This document shows positions 1-6,092 of a stretch of DNA of 6,092 nt, in pieces. The notes beneath the pieces are model-generated. The model was not told the DNA's origin. It made no database searches and was given only the letters and a program-made list of their open reading frames with translations. The first letter of the stretch is position 1. Each line of letters begins with the position of its first letter. The DNA comes from a virus (lineage: Duplodnaviria > Heunggongvirae > Uroviricota > Caudoviricetes). The stretch covers positions 1 to 6,092 of the IMG/VR virus record IMGVR_UViG_2667527717_000005, one strand, 5' to 3'. Both the position numbers and the translations under genes were made by a program.

Positions 1-139
1 ATCCGCATTTTACTGCCGCTGACGCTGGCCATCCTCGACGGCATGTCCGTACGCGTTGCGGATGAAGTTTTCATTCTGCCGCTGAATGCTGTCATGGAAT
101 CACTGTAACCCCGCGAAGCCGATCTGCATCCACTGGCCG
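1..139 (+). pseudogene. cheA: 3' fragment of a cheA-like chemotaxis histidine kinase gene (end of ATP-binding domain into start of CheW-like P5 domain); in-frame TAA at 106-108; homology ends at 139/140
   Basis: Plus frame 1 translates as IRILLPLTLAILDGMSVRVADEVFILPLNAVMESL*PREADLHPLA. This matches, from memory, the conserved segment of enterobacterial CheA that follows the G2 box (as I recall ...TIRILLPLTLAILDGMSVRVADEVFILPLNAVMESLQPREADLHPLAGGERV...). The frame stays CheA-like for 10 codons after the TAA, then diverges at 139/140. Fragment runs off the left edge of the window. Confidence 0.55.
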
Positions 140-994
140 AAGTTTCACAATCCCTTTTTGTGTCAGGGTACCGTCAGGAATACTCGTAATCTGTCCCCAG
201 GGGTGCGTATGACTACCCGCAGCCTTACTATTCGCCAGGTCATATGCCGCCTTCACCGCGCTCGGAGTCGCCGCCTCTGTCGTGCTGTTGCTATTGGTCG
301 CGTTACTAAGCTTCACAATCCCTTTTTGCGTCAGTGTGCCATCTGGTATATCAGTAATCTGACTCCAGGTATGACGATGATTTCGAGCCTCAATCAGTGC
401 CGCTTTCACCGCTTTTGGCGTAGCCGCTTTGGTTTCGTCATCACTGTCAGTGGCGTTACTCAACTGCGTAAAGCCTTTTTGTGTCAATGTAGCATCAGGG
501 TGGTTAGTCGAATGTTCGTGTTCATCCAGTTGCGAATCGACGTAATCCCGTGTTGCCAGCACAATACTGGGATCAACGGTGAGTGTTACCGCAGTCGTGT
601 TGGACACTTCCATAATGAGACGAATGCAAACTTGCTTACCGCAGCCGCCGGGTAATAGCGGTTTATACGACTCCGGGAATTTACCGATAGCAATGAGTTC
701 ACCATCGGTATCAAAAACGCCGACTTCACGTATATACCAGCCGCCGATATTTTCGGGCAGTACAAGTTCCGCAATTAACCAGCTAGGATTATTGGGCGCA
801 ACTGTTAATGTATTTAAATCACCGCGCCAGACCTCATGGCGTAATTTAGTTTGACTCGCCGTGGGTTCATAATATTGCCCACCGCCGTCTCCAACGGCCA
901 TCTTTTGCAGATGCAGTTGTTTTTTATCCGCAAGAGCACTGGCAATTTTTGCCATCCCTCTATTGGTCAGGAGGGTATAAAATTCATTATCCAT
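92..994 (-). CDS. Phage tail fiber protein, truncated (P2 gpH-like N-terminal baseplate-attachment domain plus about 2.5 fiber repeats; no receptor-binding C-terminal domain)
   Basis: 300 aa ORF. N-terminal motifs MAVGDGGG, HEVWR, IAELVLP and ESYKP follow the pattern of the P2 gpH / Mu S tail fiber N-terminal domain. It is followed by repeats of the TLTQKGxxxLSNAT...AATPxAVKAA type. Start ATG at 994 has GGAG 6 nt upstream. Residues 286-300 (RPVDADRLRGVTVIP) and the TGA stop are encoded by the antisense of the cheA-like fragment. Confidence 0.85.
   Translation of the reverse strand: MDNEFYTLLTNRGMAKIASALADKKQLHLQKMAVGDGGGQYYEPTASQTKLRHEVWRGDLNTLTVAPNNPSWLIAELVLPENIGGWYIREVGVFDTDGELIAIGKFPESYKPLLPGGCGKQVCIRLIMEVSNTTAVTLTVDPSIVLATRDYVDSQLDEHEHSTNHPDATLTQKGFTQLSNATDSDDETKAATPKAVKAALIEARNHRHTWSQITDIPDGTLTQKGIVKLSNATNSNSTTEAATPSAVKAAYDLANSKAAGSHTHPWGQITSIPDGTLTQKGIVKLRPVDADRLRGVTVIP
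140..520 (-). repeat. Imperfect tandem tail-fiber repeats inside the fiber gene (2 full units of about 51-56 codons plus a third unit cut off after 13 codons)
   Basis: Plus-strand motif ttcacaatccctttttg occurs at 144-160 and 312-328 (168 bp apart), with the related cctttttgtgtca at 474-486. Extended alignment of 140-200 against 308-368 is about 73% identical. At protein level: HPDATLTQKGFTQLSNAT..., DIPDGTLTQKGIVKLSNAT..., SIPDGTLTQKGIVKL|. Confidence 0.75.
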
Positions 995-996
995 AA

Positions 997-1629
997 TTAC
1001 TCCGGGTAAATAGATGTAATTTCAAGGCTCCATTGCCCTGTTCCGTAATAGATTGATGTGTTTTGCTGTACTTCCCGTATCTGGAAAGGTAAAACCGACG
1101 TCAGTTCACCACCATAAAGTGCACAACCAATAACAGGAATAGCACTTTGGTTAATGATCCAGACAATTAATGCTTCCAGTTTTGAACGTGTGTTTTTATA
1201 TTTATGAATGAGTTCTACCAGATTATTGAAAAGGTTTTCATCCATGCCTTTATCCACCAGCTCTATATCAACCTTAAAAAAATAAGCCTTCCCCCCATAT
1301 TCAAACCATTCTGAAATAGTTCCTGGTAATGAGAGTATTTCCAGCACCCGCCGTACCGCCCAAATCGTTCCTTTATATTTATGCAGCTCAATGGCTTGCT
1401 TAATTAGCTCGCGCTTCTCCCGTTCATCGGTGGTAAATAACCAACCTTCCAGCCCCTGAACGTGAAATTGTTCTGCAAGGGCTGGTAATGCCGAAGCATC
1501 AACCAGGTCGACCAGATAAACCATCAACGCCGTAAGATCGAGTTGGGCAAAACGCTCGGCGGCGATATTTGCCAGAATCGAAAAACGCTCATCGCTGGCA
1601 AGCGGCGGCGGTGGCAGCAATTTATCCAT
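997..1629 (-). CDS. Baseplate/tail protein, P2 gpI-like
   Basis: 210 aa ORF directly upstream of the fiber gene, the conserved gpI position. Contains an HKYKGTIWAVRRV motif resembling the gpI-family HxxGT(I/V)xA(I/V)RR region. Its stop TAA (997-999) lies 2 nt from the fiber ATG, and its start overlaps the J stop by 8 nt (ATGGATAAA). Confidence 0.8.
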   Translation of the reverse strand: MDKLLPPPPLASDERFSILANIAAERFAQLDLTALMVYLVDLVDASALPALAEQFHVQGLEGWLFTTDEREKRELIKQAIELHKYKGTIWAVRRVLEILSLPGTISEWFEYGGKAYFFKVDIELVDKGMDENLFNNLVELIHKYKNTRSKLEALIVWIINQSAIPVIGCALYGGELTSVLPFQIREVQQNTSIYYGTGQWSLEITSIYPE

Positions 1630-2737
1630 CGCTAACTCCGGCGATCGTTACGTCTATTGCAGTGCATTCCGCCCATTCATGCGCCTGCAAAATACGTTTT
1701 GTAGGCAAGTTCAGCACAACGTCATAGACGCCATCGACCTGTAACACTTTGATTATCTGGTTTGGCACAATGTCCTGCCCCAGATGTTTCTGCCGCTGTT
1801 GCGTCCAGAGGCTAATCGCTTTACGCGCCGCAGCCAGAGTTGTCTCCTGATCGGCGGTGGTAAACAGCGTTAGCTGCGCACGGATCTCATACGGCACTCG
1901 AAGAGCGCATTTCGCACTCACTTTGTCGGTCAGCGGACGTTTTTTCTCCTTGCTAACCTCCTGTTCGATTTGCGCGAGCAGTTCTATTCCCGGCAGTCCG
2001 TTCAGGGTTAGCGGGTAGATCTCCACGCAGCCTTCTGGCAATCCCTCGTCCGGCCCCAGTACTGCAACGTCAATAATCGACTGGCTTACGGAAAGCGTAT
2101 GAAAGCGGTAGGCACCATAGCTGCCCGCATTACTAAAGCTTTCTGGTGCCAGTTGGATACGCTGGCGCAATGCGTCATCGCTCTCTTCACCGCAGCCGCC
2201 CGTTGACGCAGTCAGGTTGATTACGTTGATGTCATAATGACCAATCCTGTCGACCAGAGCGCTAATTTGTGCAGGCTGCCAGCCGTTACCCTGTTCACCT
2301 GCTGCGAGGCTGGTGGCAGGAACGGCGATATGCAAACTCCTGGCCGGGAGCAGAACATCTTCATCGGTGGCGAACATCACGCTATCAGAGGCACTGGCCC
2401 GCGTCCCCTGGGGAATCAGGATATTGCTGGTATACGCACTGACAACCGAAAACTGCAACGTCGTTTTTGCTGACTGCGCAGGCAAACGATGAACGCCCAC
2501 CAGCTCCCCTAAATAATCCAGCATTGGCGCGCGGGAATACGCGACCAGGTTCTGTTTCGCCGCTTCCTGAATGGCGATGCGTACAAGGTTTTCACGATAG
2601 GCAAAAAGGTCAATCAGCAACCGCTCGGCCTGTGCCGGGTAGAGCTTTTTGCCGCTGGCATCTTCGTATTGCGCAATCATCTCGCTGGTAATTTGCGCAG
2701 GATCGCGTTCAATAAAATTGGGTTCGGCTATCGCCAT
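1622..2737 (-). CDS. Baseplate J-like protein (P2 gpJ / Mu gp47 / T4 gp6-like wedge protein)
   Basis: 371 aa ORF with a central SFSNAGSYGAYRFHTLSV region that resembles the conserved gpJ-family core. Sits between the W-like and I-like genes as in P2. Start overlaps the W stop by 10 nt. Confidence 0.85.
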   Translation of the reverse strand: MAIAEPNFIERDPAQITSEMIAQYEDASGKKLYPAQAERLLIDLFAYRENLVRIAIQEAAKQNLVAYSRAPMLDYLGELVGVHRLPAQSAKTTLQFSVVSAYTSNILIPQGTRASASDSVMFATDEDVLLPARSLHIAVPATSLAAGEQGNGWQPAQISALVDRIGHYDINVINLTASTGGCGEESDDALRQRIQLAPESFSNAGSYGAYRFHTLSVSQSIIDVAVLGPDEGLPEGCVEIYPLTLNGLPGIELLAQIEQEVSKEKKRPLTDKVSAKCALRVPYEIRAQLTLFTTADQETTLAAARKAISLWTQQRQKHLGQDIVPNQIIKVLQVDGVYDVVLNLPTKRILQAHEWAECTAIDVTIAGVSDG

Positions 2738-3087
2738 AACACCTCCGTTGAGTTGATTACGCCGTCAGCGGCGCGCCATTGCACACGTAACGTCAGATGT
2801 TCACCGTCGATTACAGGTGTCACCTTCAGCAACCGGCAGCGCGGTTCCCACTGGCGGATGGCCTCTACCGACTCCCGTACCACATGCGGGATCGCCCGCT
2901 CGATGGGATAATCGATGTAGTGCCACAAATTGCTGCCAAACAGCGGTCTGTGGGGATCACTGCCGCGCGGTGTACGCAGAATGATGTGTATTGCCTGGTG
3001 AATATCATCCAGTCCGCAGACGTATTCTTCAGGCCGCTGCAAGGCCGGTTGCCAGTGCAGCGTTGAGGGGCGTGTTTTTGTGTTCAT
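2728..3087 (-). CDS. Baseplate wedge protein, P2 gpW / T4 gp25-like
   Basis: 119 aa ORF, the size and position typical of gpW (between V and J). Contains a gpW-like IxxILxTPxGS core (IHIILRTPRGS). Start ATG at 3085-3087. Confidence 0.8.
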   Translation of the reverse strand: MNTKTRPSTLHWQPALQRPEEYVCGLDDIHQAIHIILRTPRGSDPHRPLFGSNLWHYIDYPIERAIPHVVRESVEAIRQWEPRCRLLKVTPVIDGEHLTLRVQWRAADGVINSTEVLWR

Positions 3088-3150
3088 GAGGGTATTTTCG
3101 CCCTGACCGGGCTGTGGAGATATTAAAGCGATTTAGAAAACTGATTGATT

Positions 3151-3184
3151 AAAAAGAGAAAACCCGCTATCAGGCGGGTTAAAA
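3151..3184 (-). terminator. Candidate rho-independent terminator or attenuator directly after the spike gene, between V and W
   Basis: On the minus strand, immediately 3' of the V stop: TGA-c-tttt-AACCCGC-ctgata-GCGGGTT-TTCTCTTTTT. That is a 7 bp GC-rich stem (3161-3167 pairing with 3174-3180), a 6 nt loop, then a run with 8 of 10 T. Seen directly in the sequence; function is inferred. Confidence 0.45.
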
Positions 3185-3185
3185 G

Positions 3186-3887
3186 TCAGTGTGAATGGTG
3201 GTTGGAGTTGCCACCGCTGTCCTGCAATGCGCCGCTGGCCTGAACGTTGCCGATCACGTTGACATTGCCGGTTATCGTGGCGGCGTTACCGATGCCTCCA
3301 CTTCCTGCCATCCCACCAAGCCAGGTGAGTTTTTTCATCACCGTGACGTTGCCGGTAAAGGTACTGAGCGGTGCGTCTACCGTTACAGCCATCGCTTTAA
3401 CATCGACCTTACTGGCTTCAATGCTGACGTCGGTGGCTTTCACATCAACAGTGTCGGAAGTCACGGTGACGTGTTGGGCTTTAACCTCAACGTTGGGCGA
3501 TATCAGGCTGGTACGGTCGATAACCTCAATCACGATTTTTTCGATACCACCGTTAATCGTAAGCTGGTGGGTGCTGCGGTCATATTCAAACGCTGCGCCA
3601 TCGGAAAACTGGACATAGCGTTTGTCGCGCGATGCTACTGGCGCGGTATCTACCGTTGAATATACTGCGCCCAGCACCACGCCATCTTCACCGTTATCAT
3701 CCAGCAGAACCTCCACCTGCTCTCCCATGTCCGGTAGCCAGTAGTCTTTATTGTCCTGGGAATTGCGTTGAAGTACCGCAAGCCAGTTGCTCTTCAGATT
3801 GTCACACTCTGGAAGCGTGACTCGCACCCGAACGCTGGTTTCGTCAATATCGCTGATAATCCCCGTTTGCCGGGTTACTCCTTTCAT
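3186..3887 (-). CDS. Baseplate assembly protein V (central spike, P2 gpV-like)
   Basis: 233 aa ORF with an N-terminal OB-fold-like region (WLPDMGEQVEVL, GVVLGAVYS), then short V/T-rich beta-helix-like repeats (VDVKATDVSIEASKVDVKA, GNVTV, GNVNVIGNV), and a C-terminal His cluster NHHSH. A strong Shine-Dalgarno AAGGAGG lies 5 nt upstream of the ATG. Confidence 0.88.
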   Translation of the reverse strand: MKGVTRQTGIISDIDETSVRVRVTLPECDNLKSNWLAVLQRNSQDNKDYWLPDMGEQVEVLLDDNGEDGVVLGAVYSTVDTAPVASRDKRYVQFSDGAAFEYDRSTHQLTINGGIEKIVIEVIDRTSLISPNVEVKAQHVTVTSDTVDVKATDVSIEASKVDVKAMAVTVDAPLSTFTGNVTVMKKLTWLGGMAGSGGIGNAATITGNVNVIGNVQASGALQDSGGNSNHHSH

Positions 3888-3900
3888 ATTTCCTCCTTAC
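3888..3900 (-). promoter_or_regulatory. Ribosome-binding site for the V gene, overlapping the stop codon of the D gene
   Basis: Minus strand reads TAAGGAGGAAATATG: the D stop TAA is followed directly by AAGGAGG and then the V ATG after a 5 nt spacer. Confidence 0.7.
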
Positions 3901-4937
3901 TGGCTGGTCGCTGGCCCGCGTGACACGTCGATTTCAGTGGTATAGCCGCTGCGCACAAAACTGTGAGTAGATTTATCAATCAGCCACTGACCGGAAAGCA
4001 CGCCAAAATCGGTCAGTTCAATTTTATTGCCCGCCGTCAGTTCCGGGCAGCCCATCATTGTGAGCGTTCCGGTTTGCTGATATTCGTTGTGGCTGTCGAG
4101 TGCAGCGTTGGCCTTTGCCTGTGCTGCGCCAATGTCCGTCGCCCGACTGTTCAGTTTTAGCGTGTCGGCACTGGTGCCGACTCCACGGGCAGACGGTTTT
4201 TGCTGGCTGTCGTGGGTGTAGATAACCAGTTCTTTTTTCTTACTATTTTGATGCTGTACGGTGGCGTTTTTGTAGATACGGTTAATGGTATCTTTGAAGG
4301 TGAAATGCGAAACGTCTTTGCGGTCGATCGTTTTTACCGGTGCCAGGCAGCGCAGCGTGGGTAAATGTGAAAAAATCAGCTCTTTTGTCGTCACTTTTAC
4401 GGCATAACCATATTCACTGGCCAGACGTTTGAGAAATCCAACATCGGTTTCACCATACTGCGTTACCCGGTCGATGGTGAGCGGCTCGATTTTGCCCACC
4501 AGTTTCAGACCGTGCGTTTGCGCGATACGGCTGGCGATAGCCGAAAGCGTCGTCTCTTCAAAGCCCTGGCTGTTACGCGTGCGTAGCGCCTGATTGACGG
4601 AAGTGGCGATGCCATCAATATTTACCGTAGAAGGTGGCGATGAAATATCAATTTTATCAATAATATACTGACCACAATCGAGCAGCTTTTCCCCCTGATA
4701 ACCCATATGCAGCGCCAGCGTATCGCCTTTGCCGGGATACCACTCTTTTATCCAGCGTCCATCGGTGTCATCCAGTGTAATCGCGATGGTATCCGACTCG
4801 TTTTTAATACTGTCCTGGTAACTGATGCTGGTGACATAAGGCGTGATGTCATAAGTGATATCTTTATGCCCATACCAGAGGGTAAAAATGGGCGTGAGTG
4901 TTGCAAAGACGCCGCCAGTTACGCTTATCTCAGCCAT
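3897..4937 (-). CDS. Tail protein D (P2 gpD / Mu gpP-like late control D protein; baseplate hub)
   Basis: 346 aa ORF in the conserved position between X and V. Size and layout are consistent with the gpD family. Start ATG (4935-4937) lies inside the last codons of X (13 nt overlap), with GGAG upstream. Confidence 0.8.
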   Translation of the reverse strand: MAEISVTGGVFATLTPIFTLWYGHKDITYDITPYVTSISYQDSIKNESDTIAITLDDTDGRWIKEWYPGKGDTLALHMGYQGEKLLDCGQYIIDKIDISSPPSTVNIDGIATSVNQALRTRNSQGFEETTLSAIASRIAQTHGLKLVGKIEPLTIDRVTQYGETDVGFLKRLASEYGYAVKVTTKELIFSHLPTLRCLAPVKTIDRKDVSHFTFKDTINRIYKNATVQHQNSKKKELVIYTHDSQQKPSARGVGTSADTLKLNSRATDIGAAQAKANAALDSHNEYQQTGTLTMMGCPELTAGNKIELTDFGVLSGQWLIDKSTHSFVRSGYTTEIDVSRGPATSQ

Positions 4938-5134
4938 GGTGGGATCTCCGATAAGGTTTTATTGACGGAAATGACCGGAATGATGAGCTGAATACCGGAA
5001 GGCAGTACCGGATAAATGGCGACATGTGGATTGGCTGCGATAATGCGTTCATAAGCCAGTGCATCGCCGTAGTAATGCCAGGCCAGGTTATCCCAGCGTT
5101 CGCCATCGGTGGTGATATGTTCAAGGTATCGCAT
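4925..5134 (-). CDS. Tail protein X (P2 gpX-like small LysM-like protein)
   Basis: 69 aa ORF with a WHYYGDALAYERIIAANP motif resembling the gpX-family YYG...AANP signature. Its ATG shares a base with the U-like gene stop (TAATG at 5132-5136). Confidence 0.8.
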   Translation of the reverse strand: MRYLEHITTDGERWDNLAWHYYGDALAYERIIAANPHVAIYPVLPSGIQLIIPVISVNKTLSEIPPWLR

Positions 5135-6087
5135 TACCAGCTCCTCGTAATGGTCGCGGCAGCAAGCTGGCTCACTGCGGGAGTGGTTTGTTGTACCGTT
5201 GTTCGTGCCTGATCAACCAACGTTGCGGCTTTATCAAACGTCGCTTCGGCGATGTTGCTGGCAATGTCGTCGAAAAGTGTCTGAGCATGGTCAACCAGCG
5301 TACTGGCGTCATTGGCGCAGTCCCGTATACCTGGCATGTTACCCAGTAAAGCTTTAATCTGAGCCGACAACGCTTTTGGGAGTCCTGCCAGCATTTGCAG
5401 ATCCATTGGCTGTTTAAACAGGGTTTCGATGGCGTCGATAGTCTTTTTCAACGACGTAATTATCTTTTCACACTTTTCTTTTAACGCTTTGGCCTCTTTA
5501 ATCAGTGCTTTCACTTTTGCCACTGTTTTTTTAATATCTTCAATGGTTTGCGCCAGTTCATCGAGCATCTCTTTGGCTTTGCGCATACCTTCTTCAATGG
5601 CGTTCAATATCTGATACAACCAGGACTCCACCTTATTCGGAAAATCGCTCGCCTTTTCCTCGATATTAGGCTCCTGGGTGGTAATTGCCGGGGGCAGCAG
5701 TGGGTTTTTCGGATCGCCGGTATACTCCTGGAGCGACATTGTTCCGCTTTGGGCAATGACATTGCCCCAGGGATCGGTGTGCTGGTGAGTGGCGGTTAAC
5801 TCTGTAATTACAAACCAGCCGCGATAATCTCCGTTGCCAAACACCAGCGCCATTGCTTTGTGAGCAAGCATGGCTTCACGCAGTCGATTCAGCTCTGTTG
5901 TGGGTTGGCAAAACTGGCTGTGCAGGGAAAATTCCAGCGCCAGCATATCCAGCTTATCGCCAATAAACTGCACGCCGGGTTTGCCTTCTATACGGGCATG
6001 TGTGGCGTAATCCACGCCCATTGTGCTTTTAAAGCCGTCCCAGAATGTGACAACTTTAAATTCAATCTCTCCTAAAACGGCATACAT
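5134..6087 (-). CDS. Tail protein with a P2 gpU-like N-terminal region and a long coiled-coil C-terminal extension (possibly Mu DNA-circulation-protein-like)
   Basis: 317 aa ORF. The N-terminus (MYAVLGEIEFKVV...GDYRGWFVITELTATH) resembles gpU-family proteins and the gene sits directly upstream of X and D as in pyocin-type clusters. The C-terminal 170 or so residues are K/E/A-rich with heptad-like periodicity. Start ATG at 6085-6087 is 5 nt from the window edge, so the true start is not certain. Confidence 0.6.
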   Translation of the reverse strand: MYAVLGEIEFKVVTFWDGFKSTMGVDYATHARIEGKPGVQFIGDKLDMLALEFSLHSQFCQPTTELNRLREAMLAHKAMALVFGNGDYRGWFVITELTATHQHTDPWGNVIAQSGTMSLQEYTGDPKNPLLPPAITTQEPNIEEKASDFPNKVESWLYQILNAIEEGMRKAKEMLDELAQTIEDIKKTVAKVKALIKEAKALKEKCEKIITSLKKTIDAIETLFKQPMDLQMLAGLPKALSAQIKALLGNMPGIRDCANDASTLVDHAQTLFDDIASNIAEATFDKAATLVDQARTTVQQTTPAVSQLAAATITRSW

Positions 6088-6092
6088 CAGGC

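Follow-up and report, generated by a model that had tools for sequence, protein, structure and literature searches.

The window that we analyzed, a stretch of DNA of 6,092 nucleotides, encodes a 317-amino-acid tail protein in which a domain of the P2 gpU type is joined through a Pro-rich linker to a helical domain. We put at roughly 0.65 the probability that this protein is the baseplate centrepiece, or tube initiator, of a BcepMu-type contractile tail, with the helical domain contacting the baseplate wedges and the LysM module residing on a separate protein, gpX. The feature is real yet ordinary: the protein is an uncharacterized centrepiece of the BcepMu type, in which the presence of a helical domain is the family norm.

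Results

Domain organization of the 317-residue protein

The protein is encoded by an ORF on the minus strand (6087..5134), and the segment originally singled out as a C-terminal extension (5137–5670) corresponds to its residues 140–317, where the peptide quoted in the original prediction was also found. A Pfam scan of the protein placed Phage_P2_GpU (PF06995) at residues 6–123 with an E value of 5.9e-34 (116.7 bits, compared to a gathering cutoff of 27.5), in a match spanning positions 1–119 of the 120-position profile, and returned no LysM or tail_X match in the 317 residues. Because the gpU domain covers residues 6–123 only and the gpU of P2 is itself 159 amino acids long, about 190 residues are truly extra, which confirmed the earlier claim that this ORF is longer than P2 gpU. 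The ~190–194 residues outside the gpU domain comprise the linker (residues 124–150) and a helical region (residues 151–316).

From its N terminus, the protein begins with a tube-like domain of the gpU tube-initiator type (5719..6087 on the minus strand, residues 1–123), recognized by Pfam PF06995 and by Foldseek. This domain is followed by a Pro-rich flexible linker, GDPKNPLLPPAITTQEPNIEEKASDFPN (5638..5718, minus strand, residues 124–150), which has low pLDDT values and a stretch, GDPKNPLxPPA, that is conserved in the family alignment of long gpU proteins. The 'extension' proper is a helical bundle domain (5137..5637, minus strand, residues 151–317), delineated by AlphaFold2 (AF2) helices and PHROG matches. 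Within it we distinguished a K/E-rich heptad hairpin of about nine heptads (5416..5607, minus strand, residues 161–224), defined by periodicity and AF2, and a conserved C-terminal tail, TTPAVSQLAAATITRSW (5137..5187, minus strand, residues 301–317), which ends in a hydrophobic-T/V-R motif.

The extension had been described as heptad-like and rich in K, E, and A, and this description held. Ala, Lys, Leu, Thr, and Glu make up 14.6%, 10.7%, 10.1%, 8.4%, and 7.3% of residues 140–317, respectively, and the segment is also rich in Ile. The 3.5-residue periodicity of L/I/V/M/F across residues 155–230 had a power of 3.88, compared to a mean of 0.23 for shuffled sequences, with 0 of 2000 shuffles reaching the observed value, and residues 161–224 can be laid out as about nine heptads with L/I/V/M at the a and d positions. 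In the same test, the N-terminal domain showed no 3.5-residue periodicity, and residues 240–317 gave a 3.6-residue signal, typical of an amphipathic helix, instead of a 3.5-residue one. The Ala/Thr-rich tail that had been proposed was likewise found, in the final ~40 residues.

The AF2 model of the full-length protein, which was built on a 35-sequence alignment, comprised a beta-rich N-terminal domain of low confidence, a disordered linker (residues 124–152, pLDDT <50), and five to six confident helices (residues 151–188, 192–225, 238–274, 280–300, and 302–316; pLDDT 75–95). When modeled alone, the C-terminal part formed an up-down bundle (pLDDT 81, pTM 0.76). The heptad stretch fell in the helices at residues 151–188 and 192–225, and in the monomer model this segment formed an intramolecular antiparallel hairpin within the bundle. 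With such packing in the monomer model, the term 'coiled coil' that had been applied to the extension appears apt for the heptad hairpin (residues 161–224) alone and not for a long parallel oligomeric rod. The helical domain as a whole is near-neutral, with a pI of 6.8 and 22 K+R versus 22 D+E residues.

The model of the C-terminal domain alone matched only generic or designed helical bundles, and the fold is thus not diagnostic. When the C-terminal half was scanned alone, DUF5610 scored 27.6 bits against a cutoff of 26.4, but this was one of ~70 helical-family matches and was rejected. As a query against a set of 5.8 billion proteins, the C-terminal half retrieved only gpU-containing proteins or fragments, with the module found in no other architecture. 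PDB searches with the protein, the N-domain, and the family profile found no solved structure of the long-gpU sequence family, returning generic coiled-coil matches only, and a broader N-domain profile reached PA0626, a pyocin protein, and nothing else in the PDB (E 0.021).

The long form of gpU is common among the nearest relatives

The full-length protein (residues 1–317) matched positions 1–297 of the 297-position profile phrog_788 ('tail protein') with an E value of 6e-129, and its C-terminal half alone matched the second half of this profile (positions 141–297, E 2e-39). The helical domain also matched phrog_18424. In phage records, tblastn found full-length relatives in Klebsiella phage KP12, Escherichia phage PhiKM, Burkholderia phiE255, and others, and in the 5.8-billion-protein set we found relatives of 288–327 amino acids in Salmonella, Enterobacter, Pectobacterium, Yersinia, Klebsiella, Erwinia, Xenorhabdus, Photorhabdus, Brenneria, and Serratia. 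The Salmonella records mislabel the long gpU as 'chemotaxis protein' or 'methyl-accepting chemotaxis protein'.

An exhaustive search with the N-domain only, which accepted E values up to 0.001, yielded 990 clusters at 50% identity. Among the best 150 of these 990 clusters, 74 had lengths of 271–330 amino acids, 9 were longer, 8 were 216–270 amino acids, 52 were 140–215 amino acids, and 7 were fragments, such that long forms (at least 271 amino acids) outnumbered short ones by 83 to 52 and constituted the majority among these nearest relatives. Homologs with the same full-length architecture are therefore essentially the common form, and they are usual in BcepMu-like phages, which overturns the suggestion that the extension might be a lineage-specific domain. 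The long gpU is standard in BcepMu-like (Bcepmuvirus) transposable phages and in many Enterobacterales tail clusters.

The closest parallels among named phages illustrate this point. BcepMu gp45 (296 amino acids, annotated 'P2 gpU protein') matches phrog_788 over its full length, as the window protein does (E 1.7e-115), and shares the domain order, the downstream gpX and gpD, and the entire T-U-X-D-V-W-J-I gene order, although its helical domain is very divergent and tblastn aligned residues 1–186 only. The phiE255 protein gp19, for which tblastn covered 99% of the query at 33% identity, shares both the architecture and the gene order, as does its counterpart in Escherichia phage PhiKM, which is classified in Bcepmuvirus. 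The gpU of P2 shares the Pfam domain and a C-terminal ...ATR... motif with the window protein but has only a short non-helical tail past the tube domain and is 23% identical over 74 residues. In the region of P2 that we examined, D comes directly after U with no X gene between them.

The breadth of this conservation also bears on whether the two halves are a single gene product at all. That two genes were joined by an error of sequencing or annotation is so improbable as to be negligible: we found nothing in its favor beyond the thought that related 364-amino-acid U-X fusions might themselves be artefacts, and against it the ORF is intact and near-identical across the well-covered complete E. 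coli genomes (183 with at least 80% of the window), and isolated phages as well as over 80 of the 50%-identity clusters keep the architecture. We therefore consider a fusion artefact excluded by the conservation of the architecture.

Conservation was uneven along the protein. Identity to the window protein was 83% for close homologs and 63% for distant ones in the tube domain, 78% and 44% in the linker, 60% and 16% in the helical domain, and 69% and 42% in the last 17 residues; the tube domain is thus the most conserved part, and the helical domain diverges fast. Two residues near the C terminus, S306 and R315, were invariant in the family alignment. The motif [IVLMA][VTISA]R occurred within the last 10 residues of 52 of the 74 long and 34 of the 52 short gpU relatives, compared to a background of 6–10% in random windows. 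In the window protein this hydrophobic-(T/V)-R motif reads ITRSW, and P2 gpU has ...SMATRF... near its C-terminal end. In the short forms, a low-complexity sequence rich in Pro, Ala, and Lys joins the tube domain to the C-terminal tail. Given the shared motif and this layout of the short forms, the 'extension' is better called an inserted helical domain, with the tube domain on one side and a conserved C-terminal anchor on the other.

The charged, heptad-like composition was far less widespread than the architecture. K and E together account for 18% of residues 140–317 in the window protein and for 14% of the C-terminal part of a Salmonella relative (P0013), whereas in the other long forms they account for 0–15%, mostly 5% or less, of a C-terminal part with more Ala, Gly, and Pro; many long forms have 10–20% Pro+Gly there. 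Only the K/E-rich heptad composition is specific to a subclade, that of Escherichia, Salmonella, and Enterobacter.

These comparisons inform the idea that three or six copies of the heptad segment join in a parallel coiled coil on the tail axis, as a rod or plug. The heptad repeat is very clean over its nine or so heptads, and six copies of the protein would be expected per baseplate. However, AF2 folded the segment as an antiparallel hairpin within the bundle with high confidence, and most of the homologous long forms lack the heptad and K/E character, which makes an uninterrupted coiled coil unlikely as the function of the family. We accordingly regard a rod or plug on the tail axis as quite unlikely.

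A contractile-tail module with a separate gpX gene

The window holds a single contractile-tail module, with all genes on the minus strand and clear Pfam matches throughout. The long gpU gene is followed by the gene for gpX, a small tail protein with a Phage_tail_X match (4925..5134, minus strand; Pfam E 1.6e-23), and by that for a gpD-like baseplate hub (3897..4937, minus strand; Pfam Phage_GPD, and 'phage late control D family protein' in RefSeq). Pfam matches further identified genes for the gpV spike (3887..3186, minus strand), the wedge proteins gpW (GPW_gp25; 2728–3087, minus strand), gpJ (Baseplate_J; 1622–2737, minus strand), and gpI (Tail_P2_I; 997–1629, minus strand), and a tail fibre (994..92, minus strand). 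By likeness to Mu and Milano, gpW, gpJ, and gpI are the presumed partners of the helical domain.

The genes around gpU are tightly packed: the gpU start overlaps the tape-measure stop (TGATG), and the gpX start overlaps the gpU stop (TAATG), with GAGGAG just upstream. This arrangement is that of a gpX gene translationally coupled, as judged from its sequence, to the long gpU gene. The order TMP-U-X-D was evident from both the ORFs of the window and the RefSeq annotation of E. coli strain A10, and the longer order TMP-U-X-D-V-W-J-I (T-U-X-D-V-W-J-I) is common to BcepMu, Escherichia phage PhiKM, and the E. coli cluster. A few relatives carry a natural fusion of U and X, such as P0060 (364 amino acids), with gpU at residues 6–123 and tail_X at residues 301–351. 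This fusion recreates the chain of tube, helical, and LysM modules known from Mu and Milano, which supports reading the window protein as a centrepiece.

From base 140 on, the window is 100% identical to a cluster in the chromosome of E. coli strain A10 that lies between lysC and yjbD. This cluster holds genes for a Mor activator, a holin, a transglycosylase, a membrane protein, a Gp37-family protein, the sheath, the tube, and a chaperone, together with those for the tape measure, long gpU, X, D, V, W, J, I, the fibre, and a DUF4376 protein. We found no head, integrase, or transposase genes in the A10 cluster between lysC and yjbD, and it resembles an R-type tailocin or a defective prophage with an ancestry of the Bcepmuvirus type. 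Of 5426 complete E. coli genomes, 183 carried at least 80% of the window. Our literature searches found no published description of the lysC–yjbD tail cluster; a paper on an 'ST131 tailocin' was considered as an account of it and rejected, its subject being a P2-like intact prophage.

Structural counterparts in Mu, Milano, and R-type pyocins

Three centrepieces described in the literature offer points of comparison. Mu gp43 (protein N, the 'DNA circularization protein') is a hexameric tube initiator with three parts, a tube-like domain, a flexible loop, and a helix-rich domain, the last of which extends downward to pack against the wedges and includes a LysM module (PMC11915804). The 'baseplate centrepiece' of phage Milano, gp25, has a tube domain (residues 1–127), a poorly ordered linker (residues 129–139), a helical domain embedded in a groove of the wedge (residues 141–345), and a C-terminal LysM (residues 346–396) (PMC10811340). 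In the pyocin, the helical bundle of PA0626 ('Ripcord') reportedly serves as a glue for the wedges and is expelled on contraction, when the centrepiece leaves together with the moving tube, and PA0627 is described as a LysM fold (PMC10811340).

Mu provided the best fold match. When the full-length model was compared to the PDB with Foldseek, the top two matches were chains of the Mu baseplate entry 9ki1, of 419 and 446 residues (E 3.3e-4 and 1.5e-3), with 335 aligned columns for the top match and more than 319 for both; the output did not name these chains, and we take them to be Mu gp43 from their length and the published description (PMC11915804). After these came tube-initiator chains of contractile injection systems, among them pyocin R2, AFP, and PVC, with probabilities of 0.97–1.00. 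In addition, the gene for Mu gp43 occupies the same position, between tape measure and hub. The original proposal that the extension is a module inside the baseplate holds, to the extent that the analogy to Mu applies.

At the sequence level, the window protein and Mu gp43 are more distant. Mu gp43 is 495 amino acids long and contains DNA_circ_N (PF07157) rather than Phage_P2_GpU, and its LysM is fused within the helix-rich domain, whereas in the window system the LysM would be supplied by a separate gpX. PF07157, for which Mu gp43 itself scores 91 bits, had no match in the 317-residue protein; BLASTP against Mu gp43 found nothing, with E above 1; and hhalign of the family alignment against the Mu gp43 family alignment, albeit collinear (35–215 versus 56–228), reached a probability of only 13%, with 0.4% for the broader N-domain alignment. 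By these measures, the window protein does not belong, at the sequence level, to the family of Mu gp43. The N-terminal part of Mu gp43 does match the PHROG 'Gpu-like tail protein' (the whole protein is phrog_184), and the best non-self PHROG match of our helical half was to phrog_184, collinear and with an E value of 1.3e-5. Reciprocal weak PHROG matches also link the helical parts of the window protein and PA0626 (phrog_4094).

We subjected these helical matches to controls. An HMM of the helical domain scored the helix-rich region of Mu gp43 and the helical region of PA0626 above 500 shuffles. However, the reversed sequences scored nearly as high (9.5 bits reversed versus 13.5 bits for Mu, and 9.2 reversed versus 9.8 for PA0626), indicating that the signal is mainly one of helical periodicity. 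The cross-matches to phrog_184 (Mu gp43) and phrog_4094 (the PA0626 N terminus) thus failed as signs of homology in the reversed-sequence control, and we claim no homology between our helical domain and those of Mu gp43 and PA0626. The idea that the extension is DNA-circulation-like consequently stands only in part: Mu gp43 is the nearest structural counterpart by Foldseek, but the PF07157, BLASTP, and hhalign comparisons gave no sequence relationship.

The Mu likeness raises the prospect of a second function, in which the helical domain of the transposable BcepMu-like phages would protect and circularize the ends of injected DNA, in the manner of Mu N, and would be purely structural in tail-only clusters. 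If true, the helical domain would be an injected protein and not just glue. Mu gp43 is both a tube initiator and a DNA circularization protein (PMC11915804), its gene position is that of the long gpU, and Mu baseplate chains are the best PDB fold match of the full-length model, all of which favors such a function. The DNA-circularization role is nonetheless documented for Mu only, and the missing PF07157 and BLASTP similarity count against transferring it. So does the character of the domain, which is roughly neutral here and Ala/Gly-rich with few charges in most relatives, as does its distribution: a tail-only cluster with no DNA to deliver retains the complete long form, and long gpU proteins also occur in phages such as those of the Ralstonia and Pseudomonas records. 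We consider a Mu N-like role very unlikely.

Milano gp25 and PA0626 match the window protein in different respects. The domain boundaries of Milano gp25, compared by its published description only, are nearly identical to those of the window protein (1–123/124–150/151–316), with the Pro-rich linker as the counterpart of the poorly ordered one in Milano, but the Milano protein differs in that it has eight helices, ends in a fused LysM, and is linked to the wedge by disulfides. PA0626, whose sequence from the pyocin record is 100% identical to the PDB segment 'Ripcord PA0626' (6U5B), combines a gpU domain with a helical region of ~150 residues in one 290-amino-acid chain, followed by separate genes for the LysM (PA0627) and the hub. 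It belongs to a tailocin, as does the probable context of the window gene, and PA0627, the pyocin counterpart of gpX, also matches Phage_tail_X. The module order of PA0626, however, is the opposite of that in the window protein, BcepMu gp45, Mu gp43, and Milano gp25: its gpU domain lies at residues 158–285 of 290 and its helical part is N-terminal, the reverse of the window protein with gpU at residues 6–123. With the arrangement permuted, the likeness may be convergent. Sequence comparisons found little, with an hhalign probability of 3% for the family alignment against the single PA0626 sequence and no BLASTP match between the helical halves of the two proteins. The Pfam layout of PA0626 disagrees with the wording of PMC10811340, in which the helical bundle is fused to the C terminus of the tube domain.

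The same comparisons helped to place the helical domain relative to the tube. It has also been suggested that the extension interacts with the tape measure, and one can imagine the domain lying in or near the tube lumen, binding the C terminus of the tape measure, leaving on contraction, and possibly acting on the target envelope. The translational coupling of the gpU gene to the tape-measure gene fits this idea, as do weak matches of the C-terminal half to PHROG tape-measure families (phrog_305 at E 8e-5, and phrog_167, 991, and 4704) and the reported expulsion of the pyocin centrepiece with the moving tube (PMC10811340). Yet the tape-measure matches, lying among many generic helical ones, were no better than dozens of matches to unrelated helical families (such as SMC, Rad50, syntaxin, and MCP), and hence reflect helical composition. 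Moreover, the equivalent domain in Mu and Milano lies outside the tube and touches the wedges (PMC11915804, PMC10811340), and a long Pro-rich linker separates the helical domain from the tube domain. The suggested interaction with the tape measure is thus left without support, and a position in the lumen strikes us as improbable.

The published structures that combine a tube domain, a linker, and a helical domain, together with the Mu fold match and the U-X fusion, instead lead us to read the extension as the wedge-contacting domain of a centrepiece. The helical domain most likely corresponds to the 'glue' domain of the Mu, Milano, and R-type pyocin baseplates.

Discussion

We propose the following model, in which it is inferred by analogy where the helical domain sits in the baseplate, that it contacts the wedges, and that it has a role in triggering. 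Six copies of the N-terminal gpU domain would form a tube-like ring, placed between the gpD hub and the first ring of the tube, and from this ring the flexible Pro-rich linker would run outward to the helical bundle of ~165 residues. The bundle most likely occupies the gap between the hub and the wedges (gpW, gpJ, and gpI), where it would touch the N-terminal helical bundles of adjacent wedges and hold these wedges together in the extended state and from which it would be released or expelled as the baseplate opens. The same role has been ascribed to the helix-rich or helical domains of Mu gp43, Milano gp25, and pyocin PA0626. Whereas Mu and Milano have the LysM module in the same chain, here it would be supplied by the translationally coupled gpX, and the extreme C-terminal tail is probably an anchoring peptide.

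A more elaborate possibility, which we view as unlikely, is that the long gpU represents a distinct third design of centrepiece. In such a design, a fast-evolving helical domain would be inserted between the tube domain and the hydrophobic-T/V-R anchor that is common to short P2-type gpU proteins, the module order would be a circular permutation of that in the pyocin ripcord, and the LysM would act in trans; in transposable BcepMu-like phages, the domain might perhaps also serve in Mu N-like protection or circularization of DNA ends.

For the centrepiece reading that we favor, the value lies mostly in annotation, in that one half of a widespread tail protein, so far lacking annotation, is given a concrete proposed structural role. 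The helical domain would also account for the 'chemotaxis protein' labels in the Salmonella records. Beyond annotation, three arrangements of the same modules can now be set side by side, namely tube-helical with a separate LysM in the long gpU proteins, helical-tube in the pyocin, and tube-helical-LysM in one chain in Mu and Milano, and these bear on the evolution of the minimal baseplate. Engineering of R-type tailocin-like particles would call for leaving the helical domain of the centrepiece intact.

The window joins sequences matching two distant chromosomal loci

Bases 1–139 of the window share 99% identity with cheA, found at 2.125 Mb in E. coli strain A10; the remainder, bases 140–6092, matches a tail cluster in that strain at 4.625 Mb. 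Because the two segments match such distant loci, the window is, judging from these alignments, chimeric, rearranged or misassembled, with its joint at 139/140. The cheA piece therefore produces apparent 'matches' to the window in almost every E. coli genome. The joint also shortens the tail-fibre ORF (994..92, minus strand), which encodes 300 aa in the window versus 589 aa (1770 bp) in A10.

A tail-only cluster between lysC and yjbD

In A10, window bases 140–6092 fall within a tail-only gene cluster flanked by lysC and yjbD (positions 16024–31664 of the locus NZ_CP028764.1 4607273–4649225). The cluster, a candidate R-type tailocin of BcepMu-like ancestry, contains Mor, a lysis cassette, and sheath, tube, tape-measure, baseplate and fibre genes, with no head, integrase or transposase genes. 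It is carried by about 3% of complete E. coli genomes, and close relatives occur in Salmonella and Enterobacter; no account of it turned up in the literature searched.

Within the baseplate operon, the 98-nt gap between the gpV stop (3186) and the gpW start (3087) holds a G+C-rich hairpin that resembles a terminator, with a T-run after it (AACCCGCCTGATAGCGGGTT TTCTCTTTTT; 3161–3180, minus strand). Hits numbered 2, versus 0.4 expected. BcepMu likewise has a gap between gpV and gpW.

Architecture of the long gpU family

The order of modules in the window protein, gpU and then helical, is the reverse of that in PA0626, the pyocin R2 'Ripcord' (2506–3375 of its pyocin record), in which a helical region is N-terminal and the Pfam gpU domain occupies residues 158–285 of 290. 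The wording of one published comparison (PMC10811340) runs contrary to this C-terminal placement of the gpU domain. Three 364-aa relatives from Salmonella and metagenomes (P0060, P0074 and P0091) carry long gpU and gpX in a single chain, with Phage_tail_X at 301–351. These fusions may be real, in which case they mimic the single-chain layout of Mu and Milano, or may be artefacts of a frameshift where the two genes overlap at TAATG.

Salmonella records name members of the long gpU family 'chemotaxis protein' or 'methyl-accepting chemotaxis protein', and relatives of Mu gp43 bear the name 'multidrug DMT transporter permease'. These names seem to be misannotations in both families, the helical region being the likely source of the chemotaxis names.

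In the family alignment, clean indels of 22–29 residues separate the close relatives P0026, P0030 and P0038 (288, 289 and 327 aa) at columns ~150–235, within the first two helices. Given these indels, either the helical bundle is tolerant of large length changes or some of the copies are defective. At the extreme C terminus of gpU (window 5137–5187, minus strand), a hydrophobic-(T/V)-R motif is common to long and short relatives (P0125–P0272), at about 65–70% versus a 6–10% background, which suggests a putative anchoring peptide common to both forms.
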